This document shows, one piece after another, positions 47,700 through 64,000 of a stretch of DNA of 64,000 bases. Position numbers and translations under genes: made by a program. Below the pieces are notes generated by a model, which worked only from the letters and a program-made list of their open reading frames with translations, ran no database searches and was not told the DNA's origin. The stretch comes from a virus. Lineage: Duplodnaviria > Caudoviricetes. The stretch lies in the IMG/VR virus record IMGVR_UViG_3300047160_002455, positions 13,048 through 77,047 of that record. The stretch is one strand, 5' to 3'. Numbering within the stretch: position 1 is the stretch's first letter; each line of letters opens with the position of its first letter.

Positions 47700-48449
47700 T
47701 CAGTTCTTAACCCAGACCCTTTCGCAGTAGTTCATCTCTTTCCCCTTGTCCACGTTGGAAGCGCAGCGACTCACTTGTTTAAGATGTTGGAACGGCAGCC
47801 AGGTATCTTTGATCGTGCCGCAGACGATAACCTGTCCCTTCCGTGCCCGGCACCATGCCGCCAGTTGCTTGTAGTCGATCTCATGGTGGACGTAGTATAC
47901 CCCTTGCGATTGATACGGCGGGTCGATTAGCCACGTCGCCGCCTGATTCGGGCATTCCTCATAGCTCCCCTCACAGACGCGCCAATGCTTGATTTGGTTC
48001 ACTTGAGAGGCAATCCTAGCACGAATGACACTACCCCAGACGCAATCCACGCGCGTCTTGAGGTGCATCCACGGCGACGGTTTATTGCGTGGATGCTGCG
48101 ATCCCTTGGCGATCCACCAGCCGATTAGCCAGCGTGCCTCTTCGCATAAATGCGTTAGATCGTTGACGCGCCGAAACTTCAGAGGCAAAGCTAGGATCTC
48201 CGAAGGTTTGGCAGCGATTAGATACCGCCACAGCCCGACCACTTTCGGGTTCACGTCGTAAAGCAGCACCTTGCGGTTCGCATAGCGCAGAGCATAGGAC
48301 GCGCTGCCCGCAAACGGTTCCACAATGAGATTATGCTTCGGACGCGGATAGAACGGCACTAGCCGCCACTTGCTGCCGTAGTAGCTGAACATCGGCAGCA
48401 GGTCCGCGCCGCCGCGCCGCTTGATGCTGGCTGTAGATTTAGGGAGCAT
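47700..48449 (-). CDS. DNA adenine methyltransferase (Dam/D12 class, short)
   Basis: FSYYGSKW, EPFAGSA (motif I), IDPPY (motif IV). Start may be 48392. Confidence 0.85.
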   Translation of the reverse strand: MLPKSTASIKRRGGADLLPMFSYYGSKWRLVPFYPRPKHNLIVEPFAGSASYALRYANRKVLLYDVNPKVVGLWRYLIAAKPSEILALPLKFRRVNDLTHLCEEARWLIGWWIAKGSQHPRNKPSPWMHLKTRVDCVWGSVIRARIASQVNQIKHWRVCEGSYEECPNQAATWLIDPPYQSQGVYYVHHEIDYKQLAAWCRARKGQVIVCGTIKDTWLPFQHLKQVSRCASNVDKGKEMNYCERVWVKN

Positions 48450-49296
48450 AGACGAATCCGTTGACCAGCAAGACCTCCGGTGCAACTTCCCGCGCCGATC
48501 CGCGCTCCGTGGTGTGCAGATGCTTGTGGCGCGGACACTTGATTTTGCGCCACCCGCTATACAGATTGTTCAGTTGCGGCGCGTCGTAATAGCTGACCAC
48601 CACCCGCGCCTTGTGGAACCGCGATAGGGCGGTTGCCAGCCGCGAATGCTGCTCAGACGTAAAATCATACTCGAAACGACCGCCGCTTGACGTTGTTTCC
48701 GGCAAATAGGGCGGGTCGATGTACATAGAGACTTCTTTACGATCTTCGATTGAAGCTAGACACTCGAACAGATCCCGCCGCAAGATATGGACGTTTTTCA
48801 AGCGGTCCACCCAGGCAGGGATGGAATCCACGGCGCGGCGGAATCGCAAGGGACCACTGCCGCCGCCCGAAGTCCAGCGCGTCGCGATGCTATGCTTGAC
48901 CTTATCCGTTCCGATGATGCCGTTGCGCCCCATCCATGAAACAACGAAGTAGTGATATGCCCAGACCGCGCTGGGCGCATTTTTCTCCATGCACTGCAAT
49001 TCCTCGACAGAGCGCAAATAGAGATCGTCCTGATACATGGTCCGCTCCAGCATGTCGAATAGCTCCACCGACAGCTTGCCATCCTGCAGCACCCAGCACA
49101 GATTGGTGAGCGCGCCGTGCAGATCGCAAGCCATCTCATGGTGAGACGGCGGTTTCGCGAGCAAGACGGCAAGCGATCCACAGCACCCCTCGAAATAGAA
49201 TTGGTGCCGCCCCAGCTGCCGGATAATAAGAGGAGCCATCGTGCGCTTGGACCCGTACCAAGGCAGGATGGCTCCTAGCGGTCTTTTTCCAGGCAT
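48439..49296 (-). CDS. DNA adenine methyltransferase (Dam/D12 class)
   Basis: PWYGSK, EGCCGS (degenerate motif I), YIDPPY. Confidence 0.85.
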   Translation of the reverse strand: MPGKRPLGAILPWYGSKRTMAPLIIRQLGRHQFYFEGCCGSLAVLLAKPPSHHEMACDLHGALTNLCWVLQDGKLSVELFDMLERTMYQDDLYLRSVEELQCMEKNAPSAVWAYHYFVVSWMGRNGIIGTDKVKHSIATRWTSGGGSGPLRFRRAVDSIPAWVDRLKNVHILRRDLFECLASIEDRKEVSMYIDPPYLPETTSSGGRFEYDFTSEQHSRLATALSRFHKARVVVSYYDAPQLNNLYSGWRKIKCPRHKHLHTTERGSAREVAPEVLLVNGFVYAP

Positions 49297-49727
49297 TACG
49301 CCCCAGCTTTCAGTACCTTCCGCTTGTAACGGCGGTTGATCGAGATATCCTTTTCCCGCAGTTTCGGCAGACGCTTGTGTGCCTCCGCGTAGACTGCCAG
49401 CGCTTTGCGTCCACGATCCGTAATCTCGTAGACGGTCTCGTTGATGCCGTCCTCCGGTACTTTCAACTCCTCCTTAGACACCAAGCCACCAGGGACAAGT
49501 CCCGTTACCGATGCACCGTAGGAATCGCGACCGTTCAGCGCGGCAGTAATCGTGCCGCTGATTGCACTAATCCCGATGCGTTCACACAGCTTGGCGCGAG
49601 TCAGTGCCGGGGCAGGCGTGCCCACCGATAATACCCGCAAAATGCGGATTTGGGGCAGGCGCAACTTCGTTTGGACAGCACCGTTCTTCTTAGGGTGCTT
49701 CCGCCCAGGCTTCGTGACTTTCGGCAT
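49296..49727 (-). CDS. winged-helix DNA-binding protein
   Basis: QIRILRVL...TRAKLCERIG...GLV...YEITDRGRKAL. Confidence 0.65.
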   Translation of the reverse strand: MPKVTKPGRKHPKKNGAVQTKLRLPQIRILRVLSVGTPAPALTRAKLCERIGISAISGTITAALNGRDSYGASVTGLVPGGLVSKEELKVPEDGINETVYEITDRGRKALAVYAEAHKRLPKLREKDISINRRYKRKVLKAGA

Positions 49728-49835
49728 TGCAAAATGCTCCTTTCCTCGAAAAAGATAGTTGTCCTGAGGAACTTTCCTCACTGACAAATTATACGGCTGG
49801 GGTCGAGGCAAAGAAAGCAAAAAGTTAGTCCTCAC

Positions 49836-50339
49836 TTACGCGGAGAACGAAAAACCGCACTTGGGACACTCAAACTGCCGCGCTTTGCCGTTTGCCGGGG
49901 TTTCCGCTGGGACATACTCCCGCCGCAGCCTGAGAAGATCGTCCTGAGACCACCCCTGCTCAATCATCTGGGCATCCTCGACTAGCTCAGACACCCGTGC
50001 TACAGCGTCATAATCCCAACGCGCCAATTCGGCAGTCCGGTTGTCCGCGAGACTGTAGCCGATTGCCTTTCCCGCGTGAAAATTGACCCAGGTGACCGCG
50101 ATTTCGGTCCAACCCAGCTGACGTGCCGCCTCCAGCGTTCCATTGCCTGCAATCACTATCCTAGTGCGACGTTGCACCACTAGGGGCTTAGTCTGCCCAT
50201 AGGCAGCCAGCGAGCCCTTGATAGCGTCAATGTTCGCTTCGGGGTGCAAACGGGCGTTATTGGGGTTCAGCTGCAGGCGGTCGATAGCGACTACCTCGAC
50301 TTTAGACTTCCTGCCTACCAGGATGTTTGACTTTGGCAT
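49836..50339 (-). CDS. ParB/Srx-like protein with C-terminal zinc ribbon (methylase-associated type)
   Basis: LQLNPNNARLH...IDAIKGSL..YGQ.KPLVV...IAGNGTLEAA..LG, ADNRTAE, CPKCG. Confidence 0.85.
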   Translation of the reverse strand: MPKSNILVGRKSKVEVVAIDRLQLNPNNARLHPEANIDAIKGSLAAYGQTKPLVVQRRTRIVIAGNGTLEAARQLGWTEIAVTWVNFHAGKAIGYSLADNRTAELARWDYDAVARVSELVEDAQMIEQGWSQDDLLRLRREYVPAETPANGKARQFECPKCGFSFSA

Positions 50340-50364
50340 TCGATTGCCCCGATTCTTGCCTGCG

Positions 50365-51402
50365 CTATCTGAAAGTATGGCTAAACGAACAATGCGGGCT
50401 AAACCAGATTCGCTCCCGTCTACAATTCGCCTTGCCTTGGCTCTCGCTCTTGGACAGTGAAGCCATGCCCCCATTCGCCTTCCACGCCACGCATTTCCAA
50501 GATTGCGGCATAGTGTGCTCGCCTTCGTATCCGCATAGCGCTATGCGCAAGCGCGGGTCGTCCCCATGCTCAATCGCCCACTCGCGCACGTCGTGAGCGA
50601 CGGACAGCGAATCGACGCGGTAGCAGCCGTCTTCTCGATTCGCCGTATCCGCATATGGCGGGTCTAGGAAGATGCCGCAGGGCTTACCGCCAGCGAAAAA
50701 GTGCGATAGCGCATTGCCACTTCTGCCACCGCAAACCCGCCGCCAGTCACCGCAGCAGACGCGGACACGCCGCAGGCGTTCGCAGAGTGCCTGCATCCAG
50801 GCGTGTAAGCCTTGCTCGCCGCAGCCAGCGATACCATTTTCGCTCGGTGTATCGCGGCAGGATTTCTTGAGCACGCCCTCGCCCGCGTTGCTCAGGTGGA
50901 CGCACCGCCGCGATACTCCATTGGTGCTCGTTATCTGGACTAATTGGCGCACTCCATCCACTTCTTGAACTTGCCACGGTCCCTTGCCCGAACAGAACCC
51001 GCTGCCTATCCAGCACGCCACGCCCCAGCACCACCAGCCGGCAATTTTGGCGTCGTAGTATTCGGGGTCGCCTTCGAGCTTCGCTTGGAGTGAGTCCTTG
51101 CGCTCCACAAGCCATGCGTGCCGCGCGTGCAGATCGTTTTCATTCACTAACCAGTCGGCATATTGCGCGACTTCATCCGGCTTCGCTTGCACCGCGCGCC
51201 AGAAGTTGCAGACAAGACCGTCCACATCGTTGACCGTTTCGACCCCCTTAAACGGCTGCGGGCGATTGAGGAAGACCGCGCCCGAGCCGAAGAAGGGCTC
51301 AACGTAGCCGCGCACGTCGCCGAGGTGCTGCCAGACGGTTTCCGCGATGCGCGCCTTGCCGCCGAAATACGGAAAAGGTGCCAGGATGTTACTTTTTGGC
51401 AT
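50365..51402 (-). CDS. DNA adenine methyltransferase (Dam-like with insertion)
   Basis: FPYFGGK, YVEPFFGSG, ND.DGL..NFW, FLDPPY. Confidence 0.85.
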   Translation of the reverse strand: MPKSNILAPFPYFGGKARIAETVWQHLGDVRGYVEPFFGSGAVFLNRPQPFKGVETVNDVDGLVCNFWRAVQAKPDEVAQYADWLVNENDLHARHAWLVERKDSLQAKLEGDPEYYDAKIAGWWCWGVACWIGSGFCSGKGPWQVQEVDGVRQLVQITSTNGVSRRCVHLSNAGEGVLKKSCRDTPSENGIAGCGEQGLHAWMQALCERLRRVRVCCGDWRRVCGGRSGNALSHFFAGGKPCGIFLDPPYADTANREDGCYRVDSLSVAHDVREWAIEHGDDPRLRIALCGYEGEHTMPQSWKCVAWKANGGMASLSKSESQGKANCRRERIWFSPHCSFSHTFR

Positions 51403-52664
51403 TCTCCACCGCTCCGATCCGTAACTGCGCTATCTCGAAATACTCACCAGAGATTTCGATGCCGGTAAAGCAGAAACCTTCCCGCACAGCCGCCATGCCC
51501 GTAGAACCGGTGCCCATAAAGCAGTCCAGCACCACACCACCCGGTGGAGTCACCAGACGGCACAGATAAGGACATCAATGCCAGGTTCTTGACGGTTGGA
51601 TGCTTGTTTTCGACCTCTCCCATGTTGCGCTCACGGCGCGATGCCTTAGCGACATAGAAGAATCGAGACGCGCCCCCGGTGTCGCCATAGGTCGGTATCT
51701 CCTGTCCCGACCGCCTGCTGTCGGCGCGGTAACAGTTTTTCGATTTACCGGCACTCGCCCTCTTAATACACCCATGACCACTTGTTAGTTGCCCACTCTG
51801 CCTATCGAGCATGGCAACCGGGCAATCAGGGGTGCAGTCCCCATTGCAATCGTGCGACAGCACTACGTTTGCGGGGAAGCGCCCTAGCTGCTCTCCAGGT
51901 CTTGCTGTAGCGTACCGTTTTGGACTAGTCCTACTGATGAAACCGGGCTCACCGGGATGTCCTGAATATTTTCCCTGCCTTCGCCCTACTGACGGGGAAC
52001 CACCAGCGCAAGCGATCCGGCAACCGTCGATATTGAGCGCGCCCGTGCCCCACTTGAGCACGTTGGCAGCGACGCTTTTCTCAGACAACGGTTTCCGCGC
52101 CAAGATATAAAATTCGCAGGCTGGCTTCAGACCAGTTCCGAATCCCTGCCAGCGCTTGGCATCGTCCGATGTCGGCACATGCACAGGTTGCACCGTGCCC
52201 CAGTTTTCCAGCGTCCACGCATCCTGCCGATAGGTTGAAGCGCGCCGCCCCGACTTGACGGTCCCGGCAATCCGTGGCTCCCCAGCTGACTTGTCGATTG
52301 CCCTCGACACATCAAGCGACTTGGGGAATCCCTGCCCGAACAGGTGACTCACAATATCGCGGATGTCAAATCCGGCAGCTTCGATTGCCGTGGCGGTCCG
52401 ATGCGAGATGCGCGGCAATGCCCACACCAGACAATGCGCCCCAGGTTTCAGCACCCGATGGCACTCCCGCATTACGAGCGTCAACCATTCGATCCACTTT
52501 TCCGGTGACCCTTTATCCGAGTCCCAATGTAGACCCATAAAGTCAATCCCTGCCGGTGGATCGGTGACTAGGGAATCAAACACAGAGTCCGGAATCGTCT
52601 TGAGGATTTCCAGACAATCCCCTTGGTACAGGTCAATGCGCCGTCTTTGTCCTATCCGTGGCAT
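51389..52664 (-). pseudogene. beta-class N4/N6 DNA methyltransferase with +1 frameshift
   Basis: AGGAGGT SD. GDCL, VTDPP, HPTVK, then an extra T at 51568-51569. The shifted frame continues YLCRLVTPPGGVVLDCFMGTGSTG (motif I) to TAA at 51389. Confidence 0.8.
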
Positions 52665-54856
52665 TCGACCACCTCCTTGTAAAGACGCGCCAGGGGCAGC
52701 GTCAGCCGCCACTGGGGAACGCCGCCCACGTTCTTAACCGTGATTACCTTCAGACGCTTGAGATGCTTGAGTAGCTTAGACATCGTATGGTCCTCCTGAC
52801 CTAGTGCGACTGCTAGCGAGCTACTTGCCAATCCTACGTTGCCGGTGTCCCAAATCAAGCGCGCTATCTCTAATGCCAGCCCCCGCGCCGTGTCCAGAGC
52901 GACACAGCGAACGCGGCGCATAACTTCCTCATCCCAACCATCGCGGTTTAAGACCACCGCTAGACAGTTCGCTAACCGCGTCAATTGATACGACAAGCGC
53001 GAAGATAGCTCCTTATGCGCCTTCTCTTGCTGTTTGGGAGAGGGGCGGCTGCGCATATAGGACACAAACAGCGCTAGGTTGTAGAGTTCCTGCGCTTGCT
53101 CCTGCTCCGGATTGGGCAGCAAATCGAGCAATTGCTGGGCATTGCGGCGCAGGTAGCCGATGTAGCCGCCCGTCATTCCCCGTGCTGCCACGCGCTCAGG
53201 GGATGTGGCGGTTTCCGGTTTACCGTCCACTTGCAAGCGACTCTCGTAAGCAGCACGGTAGATGACGCGCAGACCGATTGCCTCTTCCAACTCCGCGCTG
53301 ATTTCATCGCAAATGACGGTATCTAGGAACCGTTCGCCCAGTTCGCTAGTGTCCAGTTCCCGCAGTGATTCCGTGCCGCTCAGCACTAGCGTAGTCCGCA
53401 ATCGCTCATAGCGGCGCGACATACCATGCCGGTAATGCGTCCGCGCCGTGCCATCGTACAAATCCCGCGCTTCTGCCAGGATTTGCTCACGGTTCGGTGC
53501 CTTTAGCAGCGTGTCCCCATCCTTGATTACCAGCGTCTTGTTCTGCACTTGAACTAACAGGCTGTAATCCTTTGATCCTTCCTTATCCTCCTTGTAACCC
53601 GAATGGAAACCCGTAAACGTGCTGATCGGATGGACATACTTCAGATTTGCCGCGAGCGCTTCGCACAGTTCCGATTTGCCGCTGCCGGGCGGACCGATTA
53701 CCTTGATCCACAGTTGGTCACCTACCAGCTGCGTAGAGACCACGGTTGCGAGCATTACCGATAGCGTTTGATCCAGTCGATCCGTCCAGGTCAAGACTTT
53801 GCGCCAGCTGTTGACTAACGATTTCCAATCCTTGCAATCACCGCAGCCTTCCTCCGATCCTTGCGGTTCTGACCGCCGCGAGGGAACTAACCAATCCTTG
53901 GGCACATCGTCAATCTTGCCTAGCAGCTGCTGCAGACGGTCCAAGCGCGGACCGAGTAAATCACCGCCCTCCGACAGCTGGTCGCGAACGTCGTAACCAC
54001 TGGGCAGCAAACGGTCGTAACCGTTCAATCCCCAGTTCAGATAGGAGATTTTTTGCGTGACGTTGCACAGAATCGAGGTTGCTTCTTGCATCGACTTGTA
54101 ACCTTGCCCAGCGATTACCCGCGATTCGTGTTTTCGTGGATGGTCATTGTCAAACAGCAAAATCGGATGCTTGCCTTCAAACAGCGACAGGAATTTATGC
54201 AGGCAGCTGACACCGCCGCAACTGGATACCGCGAGAACCGCCGCCCGCGTGCGCAGGTTGTCTCCGTTCGCGGTTGCCATCAGATCGGTGCCGGTGAACT
54301 TCGCGACGCCCAGCAATTCCCACAGAGCGAGCGCGTCCCAAATGCCTTCGCAGATGTAGACATCCTGCGCGCTGCGGTCCCAGAGCGGAATGCCGTGCAG
54401 TTTGTGGGTTAGCGTAGGTGTCGGCATACAAATCATGCGACCGTCTTTATTGGTGCGATAGCTGTAGAGTTGATTGATCTTGCCGTCAGCGTTGTAACCG
54501 GGAATCAGCCAGTCGCCCGTAAGCGCGGATATACAGACGCCCCAGTGCATCAAGGTTTCAGGGTAGAGTAGTTTGCGATTGACGGAGAGAAGGTTGTATT
54601 GTGCGTTGTTGGTTTCTTCGTCGCTTTTTGCGTGTAGTGATTGCAGAAAGGTGTAGATGTTGCCGCCGCCGTTTTCATTGCCTTCGTGACATTTCCAACA
54701 CTTCCACTTGCCGGTGCTTTTCTCGACTGAAAATTTGCCTTCCCTGCCGCAGAACGGGCAATCGCCCGCCGCTTGTTCCTTGTCCTCCTCCCAGGACAAC
54801 TCCAAACCGTGCCATAGGTACGGTACTAGCTTCTCCGGGGTTGAGGTTGTCGGCAT
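52652..54856 (-). CDS. primase-helicase (Zn finger + Toprim-like + AAA+/MCM-like)
   Basis: CPFC/CWKC, ICEGIWDA, LLFDND, GYDVRD, GPPGSGKS (Walker A), IKDGD, GERFL. Confidence 0.8.
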   Translation of the reverse strand: MPTTSTPEKLVPYLWHGLELSWEEDKEQAAGDCPFCGREGKFSVEKSTGKWKCWKCHEGNENGGGNIYTFLQSLHAKSDEETNNAQYNLLSVNRKLLYPETLMHWGVCISALTGDWLIPGYNADGKINQLYSYRTNKDGRMICMPTPTLTHKLHGIPLWDRSAQDVYICEGIWDALALWELLGVAKFTGTDLMATANGDNLRTRAAVLAVSSCGGVSCLHKFLSLFEGKHPILLFDNDHPRKHESRVIAGQGYKSMQEATSILCNVTQKISYLNWGLNGYDRLLPSGYDVRDQLSEGGDLLGPRLDRLQQLLGKIDDVPKDWLVPSRRSEPQGSEEGCGDCKDWKSLVNSWRKVLTWTDRLDQTLSVMLATVVSTQLVGDQLWIKVIGPPGSGKSELCEALAANLKYVHPISTFTGFHSGYKEDKEGSKDYSLLVQVQNKTLVIKDGDTLLKAPNREQILAEARDLYDGTARTHYRHGMSRRYERLRTTLVLSGTESLRELDTSELGERFLDTVICDEISAELEEAIGLRVIYRAAYESRLQVDGKPETATSPERVAARGMTGGYIGYLRRNAQQLLDLLPNPEQEQAQELYNLALFVSYMRSRPSPKQQEKAHKELSSRLSYQLTRLANCLAVVLNRDGWDEEVMRRVRCVALDTARGLALEIARLIWDTGNVGLASSSLAVALGQEDHTMSKLLKHLKRLKVITVKNVGGVPQWRLTLPLARLYKEVVECHG

Positions 54857-58482: not shown

Positions 58483-58770
58483 CTATTGAATCACGACACC
58501 AAGGATTTCGTCCTCAATCATGCAAAGGAACTCCCCTTCATCGGCGCGGATTTTCCGCCCGCTGACATCGGCAACGACCTCGACTAAATCCCCTTCTTTC
58601 ACCTGTTTACACTCTGGACCGATGCCGACTACCCGCGCTTTGGTCGGATGCGACATATCCAGTCCAGACTGCGCCGGTAAGACCAGACCCGCTTTCGTCT
58701 TGGTCTCCGTCAACAGTTCCATCAGCACTTTTTTGCCGACAGGTTTGATCCATGCTTTAGCGCGCTCCAT
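58483..58770 (-). CDS. groES: co-chaperonin GroES (Cpn10)
   Basis: IKPVGKKVL...KTKAGLVLP...ARVVGIGP...VKEGD.V...EDEILGVV. Confidence 0.85.
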   Translation of the reverse strand: MERAKAWIKPVGKKVLMELLTETKTKAGLVLPAQSGLDMSHPTKARVVGIGPECKQVKEGDLVEVVADVSGRKIRADEGEFLCMIEDEILGVVIQ

Positions 58771-58825: not shown

Positions 58826-58885
58826 TGCCATACCTTGCCACATGATGCCTTTCCCCGACCCACCACAGCGTGCCATACCTCAGAC
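58821..58885 (-). ncRNA. solitary GGY-NN guide-like unit
   Basis: Same anchor (GGCA-GCC) and 11 in-phase pentamers as the large array. Starts at the AAA gene stop codon. Confidence 0.7.
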
Positions 58886-59761: not shown

Positions 59762-60041
59762 GGGGTCTCTCCATCATTGCCTTTGAAAGCGCCCCCAGTG
59801 CCGCCAGTATCTTCAAGGTTGCCTCGTCCCGGTCGGCAATCTGTTTTACTTCCGCTAGCTGTTTCTCCGTCAGGGGTGGACCAACCGCCCCCTCGCTAGC
59901 AAGCCATTCTTGGCACTGCAGGCATTCCCGCCAGTGTGCGTAGACGATAGCGCGTAACAGCGTCGGCACGTCACCGAAGTTATTGCCGGTGCATACGTCA
60001 CGGAACTCTTGGCACGTCACCTTTTCCCGGTGCATCTCCAT
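59688..60041 (-). CDS. small protein with anti-sigma-type zinc finger (zf-HC2-like)
   Basis: TCQEFRD...AHWRECLQCQEWL (C...HxxxCxxC). Confidence 0.55.
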   Translation of the reverse strand: MEMHREKVTCQEFRDVCTGNNFGDVPTLLRAIVYAHWRECLQCQEWLASEGAVGPPLTEKQLAEVKQIADRDEATLKILAALGALSKAMMERPHASSDQTVPKGGETPPTAADPCHE

Positions 60042-60213
60042 GTCCTCCTGCTGCTCTTAGTTTCGCTTCGTGGACCTCCAGACGATCAATTGTAATCTCT
60101 TTCGGCGCGGTTATGCCCAGCCTCGACATTCCCTGCCGCGCTTCCAGCACCTCAACTCGGATGTTTCCAGCAATTACGATAACCTCACCCACCTGCCGGG
60201 TTAAGACAAGCAT
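59998..60213 (-). CDS. csrA: carbon storage regulator CsrA/RsmA homolog
   Basis: MLVLTRQVGEVIVIAGNIRVEVL...RLGITAPKEITIDRLEV. Confidence 0.9.
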   Translation of the reverse strand: MLVLTRQVGEVIVIAGNIRVEVLEARQGMSRLGITAPKEITIDRLEVHEAKLRAAGGHGDAPGKGDVPRVP

Positions 60214-61377: not shown

Positions 61378-61409
61378 AAAAAAGCAGGGATGCCGGGCAG
61401 CATCGCCCT
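61378..61409 (-). terminator. intrinsic terminator closing the repeat array
   Basis: AGGG-ATGC/GCAT-CCCT stem followed by T6 on the - strand, right after the last array unit. Confidence 0.6.
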
Positions 61410-61422
61410 AACCTTTCTGTGC

Positions 61423-64000
61423 TTAACCCGGCACCCTGCGCTCTCCCGTGACCGCCCAGACGCGCCTAAACCCATCCTAACTAAGCACGACAGAGCACGG
61501 CATGGCTGCCATGTCTGGGCTCGTCTGACCAAAGCAGACCCAGACGCGCCTTACACCTCGACTGCCACACCATACCACGAAACGTCTCACCAAGTCTCAA
61601 CAGACCCCGCCTTGGATGCCGCGCCAGACCAAAACCCGGCTTGCCCCGCCCAGACCTGCCTCGACTGCCACGCCTCACCGGAGCCAAACTCACCCCGGCA
61701 GAACTTGACAAACCCGGACATGGCAGCCTCGACTGACCGCGCCTCTCCTTTCCAGGGCTTACCCGGACTAGACCGCCAGACCAATCCTAACCTGACCGCG
61801 CCTCGACTCTCCATGTCATGACAGGGCAGGACTCGACTGCCTCACCAGACAGGCAACTGTCCATGTCTCGACTCCTCAAGACACACCACAGCAAGCGTCA
61901 TCATGACCGCCTTGCCTCAGCTAAGCTAAACAGGACACAGCTTGACTAAACTGACCATGACCGCCTTACCATAGGTAACCCGGACACACCTGGACAGCCT
62001 AGCCGAACCCAGACATGAAACCATGACTGCCACACCAAGCGCAGACACACCGGACCACTCCTAAACGTGTCTCAGCTTGCCATGACCGCCACGACATACC
62101 CCACCTTAATAAGACTCACCTCGACTCGACAAACCATGTCTGCCGCGCCCCACCCAGCCTGACCGCGTCTCGACTCTCCAGACCATGCCATAACGCGCCA
62201 AGACTGCCGAAACTCACCGTGACATACGCCACCTGTCCTCGTGGCAACATGCCACTCCGTAGCCGGGCAGACCAAACCTCGACTGCCAAGACTTACCTTG
62301 CGACAGCTTGCCAATCCATAGCATACCGCGCCTTAGCGTGACTGCCACAACGGACCATGCCTTGACTCAGCGCAGCTTTCCCTGCCACAGCGCAGATGCC
62401 ACAACACACGAGACCAGTCCCAGACATATCGCGACTCGCGACACCAAGACCGCCGAGCCAAACCCAGACACAGGACTCCGTTCCTTGCCTTAGCCTACCA
62501 TAGCCCTCCATGACTTACCTAACCACACCAGAGCAGCCCAAACTCACCGTGACTTGCCCCGCCGATCCCCGACGTGCGCCGCCGCGCCAGCGAGACCATG
62601 CCTTGCGAAGCCCGACGTAGCCTTACCCGGACACACCTAGACTGCCAAGCCGAAGCTAACGCCGCCTCTCCCGAACCGGACAGACCTCGACACGGCATGA
62701 CTGCCAAGCGTCACCGGACCTCAGCACGGCACACCAAGACAGACCCGGCATTGCCTCGACTGCGCTACCACAACACACCGTGCCTAGCCCAGTCCAGAGC
62801 AACCGAAGCGCGACTGCCAAACCAAGCCAGAACTGACCACCCCGCGCTACACCGTGCATTGCGGTGCCTGAGCAGCGCAGCCAGACCCTGACTCAACCAG
62901 CCTCTTCTTGGCTAGTCACACCAAGTCAGCCTCACCCCGACTTAACTCGACTTGTGAAAGCCGAACCAGGGCAGCCTGACCCGACCTAGCCTTGACCGAT
63001 CCAGACACACCTGAGCGCGACTGGGATACCATGCCTCAACATTCCATGCCGCAACAGGGCTGTCCGAGACTGACCTTGGCATGTCACGACCGCCTAGAGA
63101 AGACACGACCTTCCCAGACGAAACATGCTGCACCACGGCAGCGTTACCGCGCCAGGTCTCAACAGACCATTCCGCGCCAGGGCTCGTGTTGCCCTACCTC
63201 GACTGCCGCGCCAGGTCTGACCGTGACAAAACCCGTCTCTCCAGAACGCGCCACGGCAGCGGTGCCTTACCAAGACTAGACGCTCCTCAACTGCCTAAGC
63301 GCGCCTCTCCTCAACTCACCGAGACAGAACACGGCAGCCTAACCCTGCCAGGGCGGACGTAGCCAGGGATGCCATAACGCGCCTTTCCATGTCATTCCTT
63401 ACCAAGCCGTGCGCCACCGGACCCAGACGCACCATAGCACGCCCAGACCGGACACGACAGCCAGACCATGCGCCAACGGAAGCCAACTCAACTCTCCAGA
63501 CCACAGCGCGACATGGCTGCCACGCCCCGCCGCTGCCCGACGTACCTAGACCAGACTTGACAGCCACAGCTTACCAAGCCGGGACGGAACTCAGCGCAAC
63601 AGAACATAACAAACCTCGACTGCCGTACCCCGCCAAGCCGGAACGGAACTTAACGTAACACGGCATGACAGGACTCACCATGACCGCCATGCGCTGCCAC
63701 GCCTTTCCTTATCGGGATCGTGACATAGCAGACCAGGGCTGCCATAGCTTGCCTTCACACGACTGAGCACAGCTAGCCATGTCTGCCACACCTAACCGGG
63801 GCGGACCTCTCCCAGACTAACCAAGACAGCCTAGCCATGCCTAGACTCTAGGACAGGACTTGCCATAACACACCGTGTCTGCCGCAACCCACCGTACCAG
63901 ACCGCGCCCGGACTCGACTGCCGAACCTGACCCCGCCCGACCCTGCCGGGACGAAACAGAACGCACCGGACCCAGACTGCCGGAACGCACCGGGACAATC
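61423..64000 (-). repeat. array of about 45 GGY-NN pentamer units (putative non-contiguous guide RNA array, VIPR-like); runs off window edge
   Basis: Strict 5-nt periodicity (- strand GGY+NN, with variants GTC/GTT/GCT/GAC/GGA). A 4-nt anchor GGCR/GGCT plus GTC/GCC resets the phase every 6-17 pentamers. No credible ORF. NN positions decode to conserved protein motifs. Confidence 0.92.

Follow-up and report, generated by a model that had tools for sequence, protein, structure and literature searches.

The non-coding tract of pentamers that closes a 77,047-bp IMG/VR record of viral DNA is very probably the downstream part of a staggered VIPR array of vrRNAs belonging to a tailed phage. The window, i.e. 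the whole stretch of 64,000 nucleotides analysed here, comprises the last 64 kb of that record, and the record ends inside the array. VIPR has already been published, so the array represents a known kind of system and novelty is not supported; the tolerance of synonymous changes proposed in the preliminary description of this DNA is likewise the VIPR authors' own explanation. Among natural examples of the VIPR architecture that has been studied least, the array is a very large one. Its guide content stands out: one guide agrees with hsdM-type genes in 95% of the read bases, and additional motifs of methylases and helicases are spelled by other guides.

VIPR is a phage RNA-guided DNA-silencing system described in three 2026 preprints (bioRxiv 10.64898/2026.04.26.720920,.720927; 10.64898/2026.10.15.759431). 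Vipr is a lone RAMP protein of ~20 kDa, and the vrRNAs consist of 9-16 GGY/NN pentamers, each occupied by one protomer. The NN dinucleotides pair with double-stranded DNA, every third target base, usually the wobble base, is skipped, and transcription is silenced (bioRxiv 10.64898/2026.04.26.720920,.720927). The preliminary description had mentioned a phage family with GGY/NN RNAs and a RAMP protein under the name VIPR; the family is real and matches these two preprints. In staggered arrays the vrRNAs overlap by 1 nt, according to the legend of Fig. S18 of one of them (bioRxiv 10.64898/2026.04.26.720920), and by that preprint's own account RNA sequencing did not confirm this architecture among the others. 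Native arrays are free of self-targeting according to the VIPR authors. Intergenic DNA in general has yielded 99 VIPR-like clusters, according to a fourth preprint. The targets named in the main texts of the preprints are satellites, prophage regulators, vipr genes and REP elements; methylase, restriction and helicase genes are not mentioned as targets in these main texts. One published guide is aimed at the active-site codons of a satellite recombinase (bioRxiv 10.64898/2026.10.15.759431).

Structure of the array

The tract extends over at least 2.55 kb to the last base of the contig (Table 1). Its autocorrelation reaches an identity of 0.41 at a lag of 5 nt and 0.39 at a lag of 10 nt, compared with ~0.25 for the remaining lags and for a control region. 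This 5-nt period is seen in the final 3 kb, where both the window and the 77-kb contig end, and nowhere else on that contig. When the phase is followed along the minus strand, the tract resolves into pentamers with G in the first position (92%), G or T in the second (52% and 29%, 81% together) and C or T in the third (93%), followed by two variable bases. The outer constant positions (G and Y) are thus 92-93% conserved, whereas the two variable positions are near-random. As the middle base is G or T, the constant triplet is G-K-Y; of the GGY-NN grammar given in the preliminary description, the period of five and the variable dinucleotide stand, while the triplet is not strictly GGY.

The phase slips 43 times, and all slips are alike: at the motif GGC-D-G(T/C)C a step of four bases takes the place of a step of five, so that the last pentamer of a unit overlaps the first pentamer of the next by one base. 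Junctions are mostly spaced 5k+4 nt apart (44, 54, 59 and 64 nt) and divide the tract into at least 44 units, all in a single orientation. In-phase blocks of at least four dinucleotides number 48, most of them 8-13 pentamers long, with 471 variable dinucleotides in total. These counts bear out the ~45 units reported earlier, and the unit that had been given as an example (61838-61774) parses and reads exactly as it was written.

A hairpin followed by a T-run resembles an intrinsic terminator and is the predicted end of the array transcript, where the preliminary description had seen the array close with a terminator. The tract had also been called non-coding, which is confirmed; its longest ORF does not exceed 143 aa. 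The two ORFs called inside the array have no exact protein on record, and neither an Rfam match in the tract nor a ribozyme between its units was found.

Table 1. Positions of the array, of selected guides and of neighbouring features. Positions refer to the window, except for the two sister arrays, which are numbered in their own loci.
Feature	Position	Strand	Basis or remark
Staggered vrRNA array, 3' part; at least 44 units of 8-13 G-K-Y+NN pentamers	61433..64000	-	Phase tracking; runs off the contig end
Intrinsic-terminator-like hairpin and T-run, predicted end of the array transcript	61380..61404	-	Sequence
Guide, conserved C-terminal motif of UvrD/Rep-type SF1 helicases	61564..61615	-	E. 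coli UvrD, p=0.006
Guide, DEAH-type helicase motif II (example unit of the preliminary description)	61774..61838	-	E. coli test
Guide, DEAH-type helicase motif II	62142..62205	-	Best E. coli HsdR site is the DEAH box, p=0.056
Guide, helicase Walker A motif	62536..62589	-	E. coli UvrD, p=0.004
Guide, 11 dinucleotides, motif IV of type I restriction methylase (hsdM)	63563..63621	-	21/22 read bases in 10/59 orthologues
Guide, 12 dinucleotides, NPPF-type N6-adenine methylase motif IV	63622..63684	-	E. coli HsdM, p=0.002
Guide, 8 dinucleotides, Dam-type DPPY motif IV	63785..63828	-	E. coli dam, 14/16 read bases
Solitary vrRNA-like unit, 11 in-phase pentamers, outside the array	58830..58885	-	Between AAA_24 gene and GroES-like gene
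Three DNA methylases, Cpn10 and CsrA homologue (coordinates given jointly)	48439-52712, 58483-58770, 59998-60213	-	
Sister arrays	L095:2-3845; L100:5213-8715		79 and 73 junctions, respectively

Look-alike arrays and the place of the vipr gene

A scan of IMG/VR for the junction-type pattern returned 115 stretches, of which 114 contain a period-5 tract. The query was the Vipr of Escherichia phage SUSP1, recognised in that phage's genome from its G-loop and the vrRNAs that flank it; a homologue lies within 3 kb of the array in 77 of these 115 loci, and in 73 of 78 cases it is located upstream of the array on the same strand. An hhalign comparison of the Vipr family of the look-alike loci with SUSP1 Vipr covers the thumb and the G-loop and gives a probability of 98.4% (E = 5e-15). 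Of the 115 loci, 76 contain a partner family of ~171 aa that lacks a Pfam or PHROG assignment and bears no similarity to SUSP1 Vap1; in 34 loci it lies directly downstream of vipr, often with a 4-base overlap. The staggered junction type is common in viral metagenomes and linked to this Vipr family and to the conserved partner protein. A profile search of a 5.8-billion-protein collection with the Vipr alignment A1 yielded at least 2,834 homologues, none of them tied to the present phage.

On the 77-kb contig, which stops inside the array, no Vipr is detected by phmmer with SUSP1 Vipr, by phrog_4652 or by the family HMM. The preliminary description had reported that the window contains no Vipr-like gene, and the same is true of the contig's remaining 13 kb. 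A longer assembly of this phage, a 124,996-bp ENA contig (analysis ERZ27257208) with an identical exonuclease, carries, on one strand and in this order, a gene of 277 aa, a gene of 161 aa, a gene-free gap of 2,985 nt and the exonuclease; in its gene map the first two genes are unannotated. A vipr gene and a partner gene of ~170 aa probably lie immediately upstream of the array, beyond the contig end, and the assembly break is most likely the reason why the effector genes are missing. The preliminary description had predicted vipr just beyond position 64000 on the minus strand. Support for this prediction is indirect: the corresponding place is where most Vipr homologues of the look-alike loci are found, and in the 125-kb assembly it is filled by two unannotated same-strand genes.

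It is improbable that the array is a solo (orphan) vrRNA array. Hundreds of solo arrays are published (bioRxiv 10.64898/2026.10.15.759431), a separate solitary unit exists outside the array (58830-58885), and 77 kb without a Vipr homologue, even by the family HMM, would suit such an array. However, the usual place of vipr falls outside the record, whose contig stops within the array; in 73 of 78 look-alike cases the gene immediately precedes the array and shares its strand, and two family-less genes of fitting size and order occupy that place in the 125-kb assembly. In addition, the arrays collected for comparison have a median length of 468 nt, compared with 3 kb here.

The array is one of the longest, with 43 junctions or more; the median of 142 arrays is 7, and the sister arrays L095 and L100 have 79 and 73. 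The gap that holds the array measures 2,985 nt in one and 3,413 nt in another assembly with identical exonuclease, and ORF positions are shifted by 54 nt, so that units appear to be gained and lost between strains.

Codon reading of the variable dinucleotides

Measured against the genome background, the dinucleotides score +61 bits as sense codon positions 1-2, −41 bits as antisense, and between +35 and −114 bits in the other four registers. They behave like sense codon positions 1-2, and several units read in this way spell textbook motifs of methylases and helicases (Table 1).

For the motif test, guides were compared with E. coli K-12 genes, with permuted guides as the null. A fixed calling rule places 5 of the 34 guides on canonical motifs of HsdM, Dam, UvrD and HsdR, where 0.125 are expected and the maximum in 200 shuffles is 2. 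In each tested E. coli protein, the canonical motif is where the relevant guide fits best, and the two DEAH-box guides reach p=0.036 and p=0.056 on HsdR. The motif readings from codon positions 1-2 in the preliminary description hold up against these reference proteins. As a control, 1,043 guides from the 142 sister arrays gave three calls, i.e. the level of shuffles; the motif reading is therefore a feature of the present array and not of the array family.

The codon-sense bias varies among the 142 sister arrays: it is strongly antisense in L095, L100, L062 and L118, and sense in others as well as in the present array. Each array seems to favour one target strand.

Matches of the guides in bacterial and viral sequences

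The search for natural matches employed bacterial loci selected by protein family from the phylum of a weak host lead. This lead is a Polysacc_synt_2 dehydratase of the phage (33369-34295, plus strand), whose counterpart in the hot-spring MAG 'bacterium HR36' is 66% identical, against no more than 37% identity in 79 other genomes, a similarity that may hint at the host. A search for Vipr in the 'bacterium HR36' genome found none.

The best natural match is that of the hsdM guide (63563-63621) to motif IV, in frame and in sense. Among 30 hsdM orthologues of the lead phylum, at least 18 of the 22 read bases agree in 28 and 21 agree in four, and in a control phylum 21 of 22 agree in five of nine orthologues. 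As the match is equally good in an unrelated phylum, it reflects family-wide conservation of the motif and names neither a host nor a target element; with no better fit in the phylum of HR36 than in the control phylum, no host can be named. The guide mismatches the catalytic Asn codon in all 59 orthologues, with G in the guide and A on the coding strand at the first base, and in the ten matches of 21/22 this position is the sole mismatch. It could be covered by an rG-dT wobble, or the true target could possess Asp instead.

The guide for the C-terminal UvrD/Rep motif (61564-61615) agrees with one UvrD-type gene in 19 of 20 read bases, in frame and in sense, the NPPF guide (63622-63684) agrees with three methylase genes in 20 of 24, and the Dam-type guide (63785-63828) reaches 14 of 16 in the family-selected loci. 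The DEAH and GHKL-like guides yielded nothing above shuffles in the ResIII, SNF2 and HATPase_c_3 samples. When the 732 kb of family-selected bacterial loci are pooled, 5 of 35 guides exceed all 40 shuffles (0.85 expected). In other viral loci that carry VIPR, 1.1 Mb in total, the guides do not rise above shuffles at either the DNA or the protein level.

An exact full-length gapped match was found neither for two guides in IMG/VR nor for one of these two in the JGI metagenomes. Sharing of guides with 1,230 guides of other arrays is marginal at best. Within the phage's own genome and proteome no self-target rises above shuffles, and only the Dam-type guide resembles a motif of the phage's own methylase.

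A role as sponge or decoy is quite unlikely; the repeat transcript would then chiefly sequester the Vipr of rival VIPR phages, with one protomer bound to each pentamer, and the dinucleotides would hardly matter. A transcript of ~500 pentamers would bind many protomers, and redirection of Vipr by satellite RNAs is published (bioRxiv 10.64898/2026.10.15.759431); yet such a role leaves the sense codon bias, the motif enrichment and the in-frame matches at 95% of read bases unexplained, and the regular unit lengths and conserved junctions look like those of a processed guide array. It is barely credible that the tract, instead of being a guide array, is a decayed repeat or a pentanucleotide repeat that serves structure or replication, given constant positions conserved at 92-93% beside near-random variable ones, the tight linkage of such arrays to Vipr genes (77 of 115 loci), the terminator and the single orientation.

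Comparison with known systems

The guide array shares its pentamer grammar, and its tail-less units that abut with a one-base overlap, with staggered VIPR arrays (bioRxiv 10.64898/2026.04.26.720920); also in common is the Vipr homologue that adjoins look-alike arrays in other phages. It differs by the absence of vipr from the 77-kb contig, by G or T as the middle base of the triplet and by a length that is among the greatest.

The type II VIPR of Escherichia phage SUSP1 comprises vipr, vap1 and four vrRNAs. It is likewise phage-borne and has the pentamer code and the reading of targets at codon positions 1-2 in common with the present array, and its Vipr is homologous to the family of the look-alike arrays. 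In contrast, SUSP1 vrRNAs are separate genes, each with a conserved 3' tail of ~40 nt and a pseudoknot, while the present units are tail-less and number dozens; SUSP1 Vap1 furthermore differs from the partner family of the look-alike loci.

Solo vrRNAs of VIPR-null phages and F5 satellites (bioRxiv 10.64898/2026.10.15.759431) have in common with the present record an array without vipr on the same record. Here, however, the absence is probably due to an assembly break, and the 61 kb without Vipr cover the one side of the array that is present. Published solo guides, as far as the main texts name their targets, aim at vipr genes, vrRNAs and REP elements and not at methylase or helicase motifs.

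Class 1 CRISPR crRNAs with a Cas7 backbone resemble VIPR in their RNA-guided RAMP filament and periodically unpaired guide bases. The present array differs from them in the lack of a repeat-spacer structure, in its period of 5 nt with two read bases, and in a target gapped at every third base; no repeat unit longer than 5 nt was found in it, nor any cas genes among the proteins scanned.

Proposed working of the array

The array would be transcribed from the minus strand, with transcription stopping at the terminator (61404-61380). Following the published mechanism, each pentamer would take up one Vipr protomer, which covers the G-K-Y bases and leaves the two variable ones exposed; every block of 8-13 pentamers would then read double-stranded DNA as two read bases and one skipped base, and binding would silence transcription. 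We suggest that the protein filament is interrupted wherever the phase shifts at a junction, which would set the guides apart, and that the guides may silence genes of the host or of co-resident mobile elements. A notable share of them would be aimed at codons for catalytic motifs of DNA methylases of three classes and of helicases, where escape mutations would be costly. To judge from the letters of the guides, the array may silence methylase and helicase genes, which could lie in restriction systems of the host, on incoming elements or in rival phages.

A more far-reaching and rather doubtful reading takes the array as an anti-defence or anti-rival panel. Dozens of guides would be kept in agreement with those codons that are least free to mutate in restriction-modification methylases (type I hsdM, Dam-type and other N6) and in helicases, so that one phage could silence whole enzyme families in its hosts or in incoming elements; the guide G opposite the A of the Asn codon would form a G-T wobble and read both Asn and Asp. 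Silencing of transcription cannot remove a restriction enzyme that is already present at infection, which weakens a simple anti-restriction reading. By this reasoning, action against incoming or rival elements would be favoured over simple anti-restriction. 

If the methylase and helicase targets are real, phages could use VIPR to counter restriction, or the self-protection of their rivals, in addition to its published uses, and motif-directed guides would explain the skipping of the wobble base.

The phage and its neighbouring genes

The record bears tailed-phage genes for an HK97-type capsid protein, a family A polymerase, a Sak4-like ATPase and a PD-(D/E)XK exonuclease. Its IMG/VR completeness estimate is 100; the 125-kb assembly with the identical exonuclease nevertheless makes the 77-kb record a fragment. 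The phage also occurs in metagenomes of the ERZ27255xxx-ERZ27257xxx series and in JGI 3300033289. A related phage, L003, whose exonuclease is 47% identical, is without an array.

The solitary vrRNA-like unit at 58830-58885 is located directly after the stop codon of the AAA_24 (Sak4-like) gene and ends in the junction motif of the array. Its best match within the phage, 15 of 22 read bases and not above shuffles, is inside the adjoining AAA_24 gene. An operon downstream of the array contains three DNA methylases (two D12-class, one N6_N4), a GroES-like Cpn10 and a CsrA homologue.
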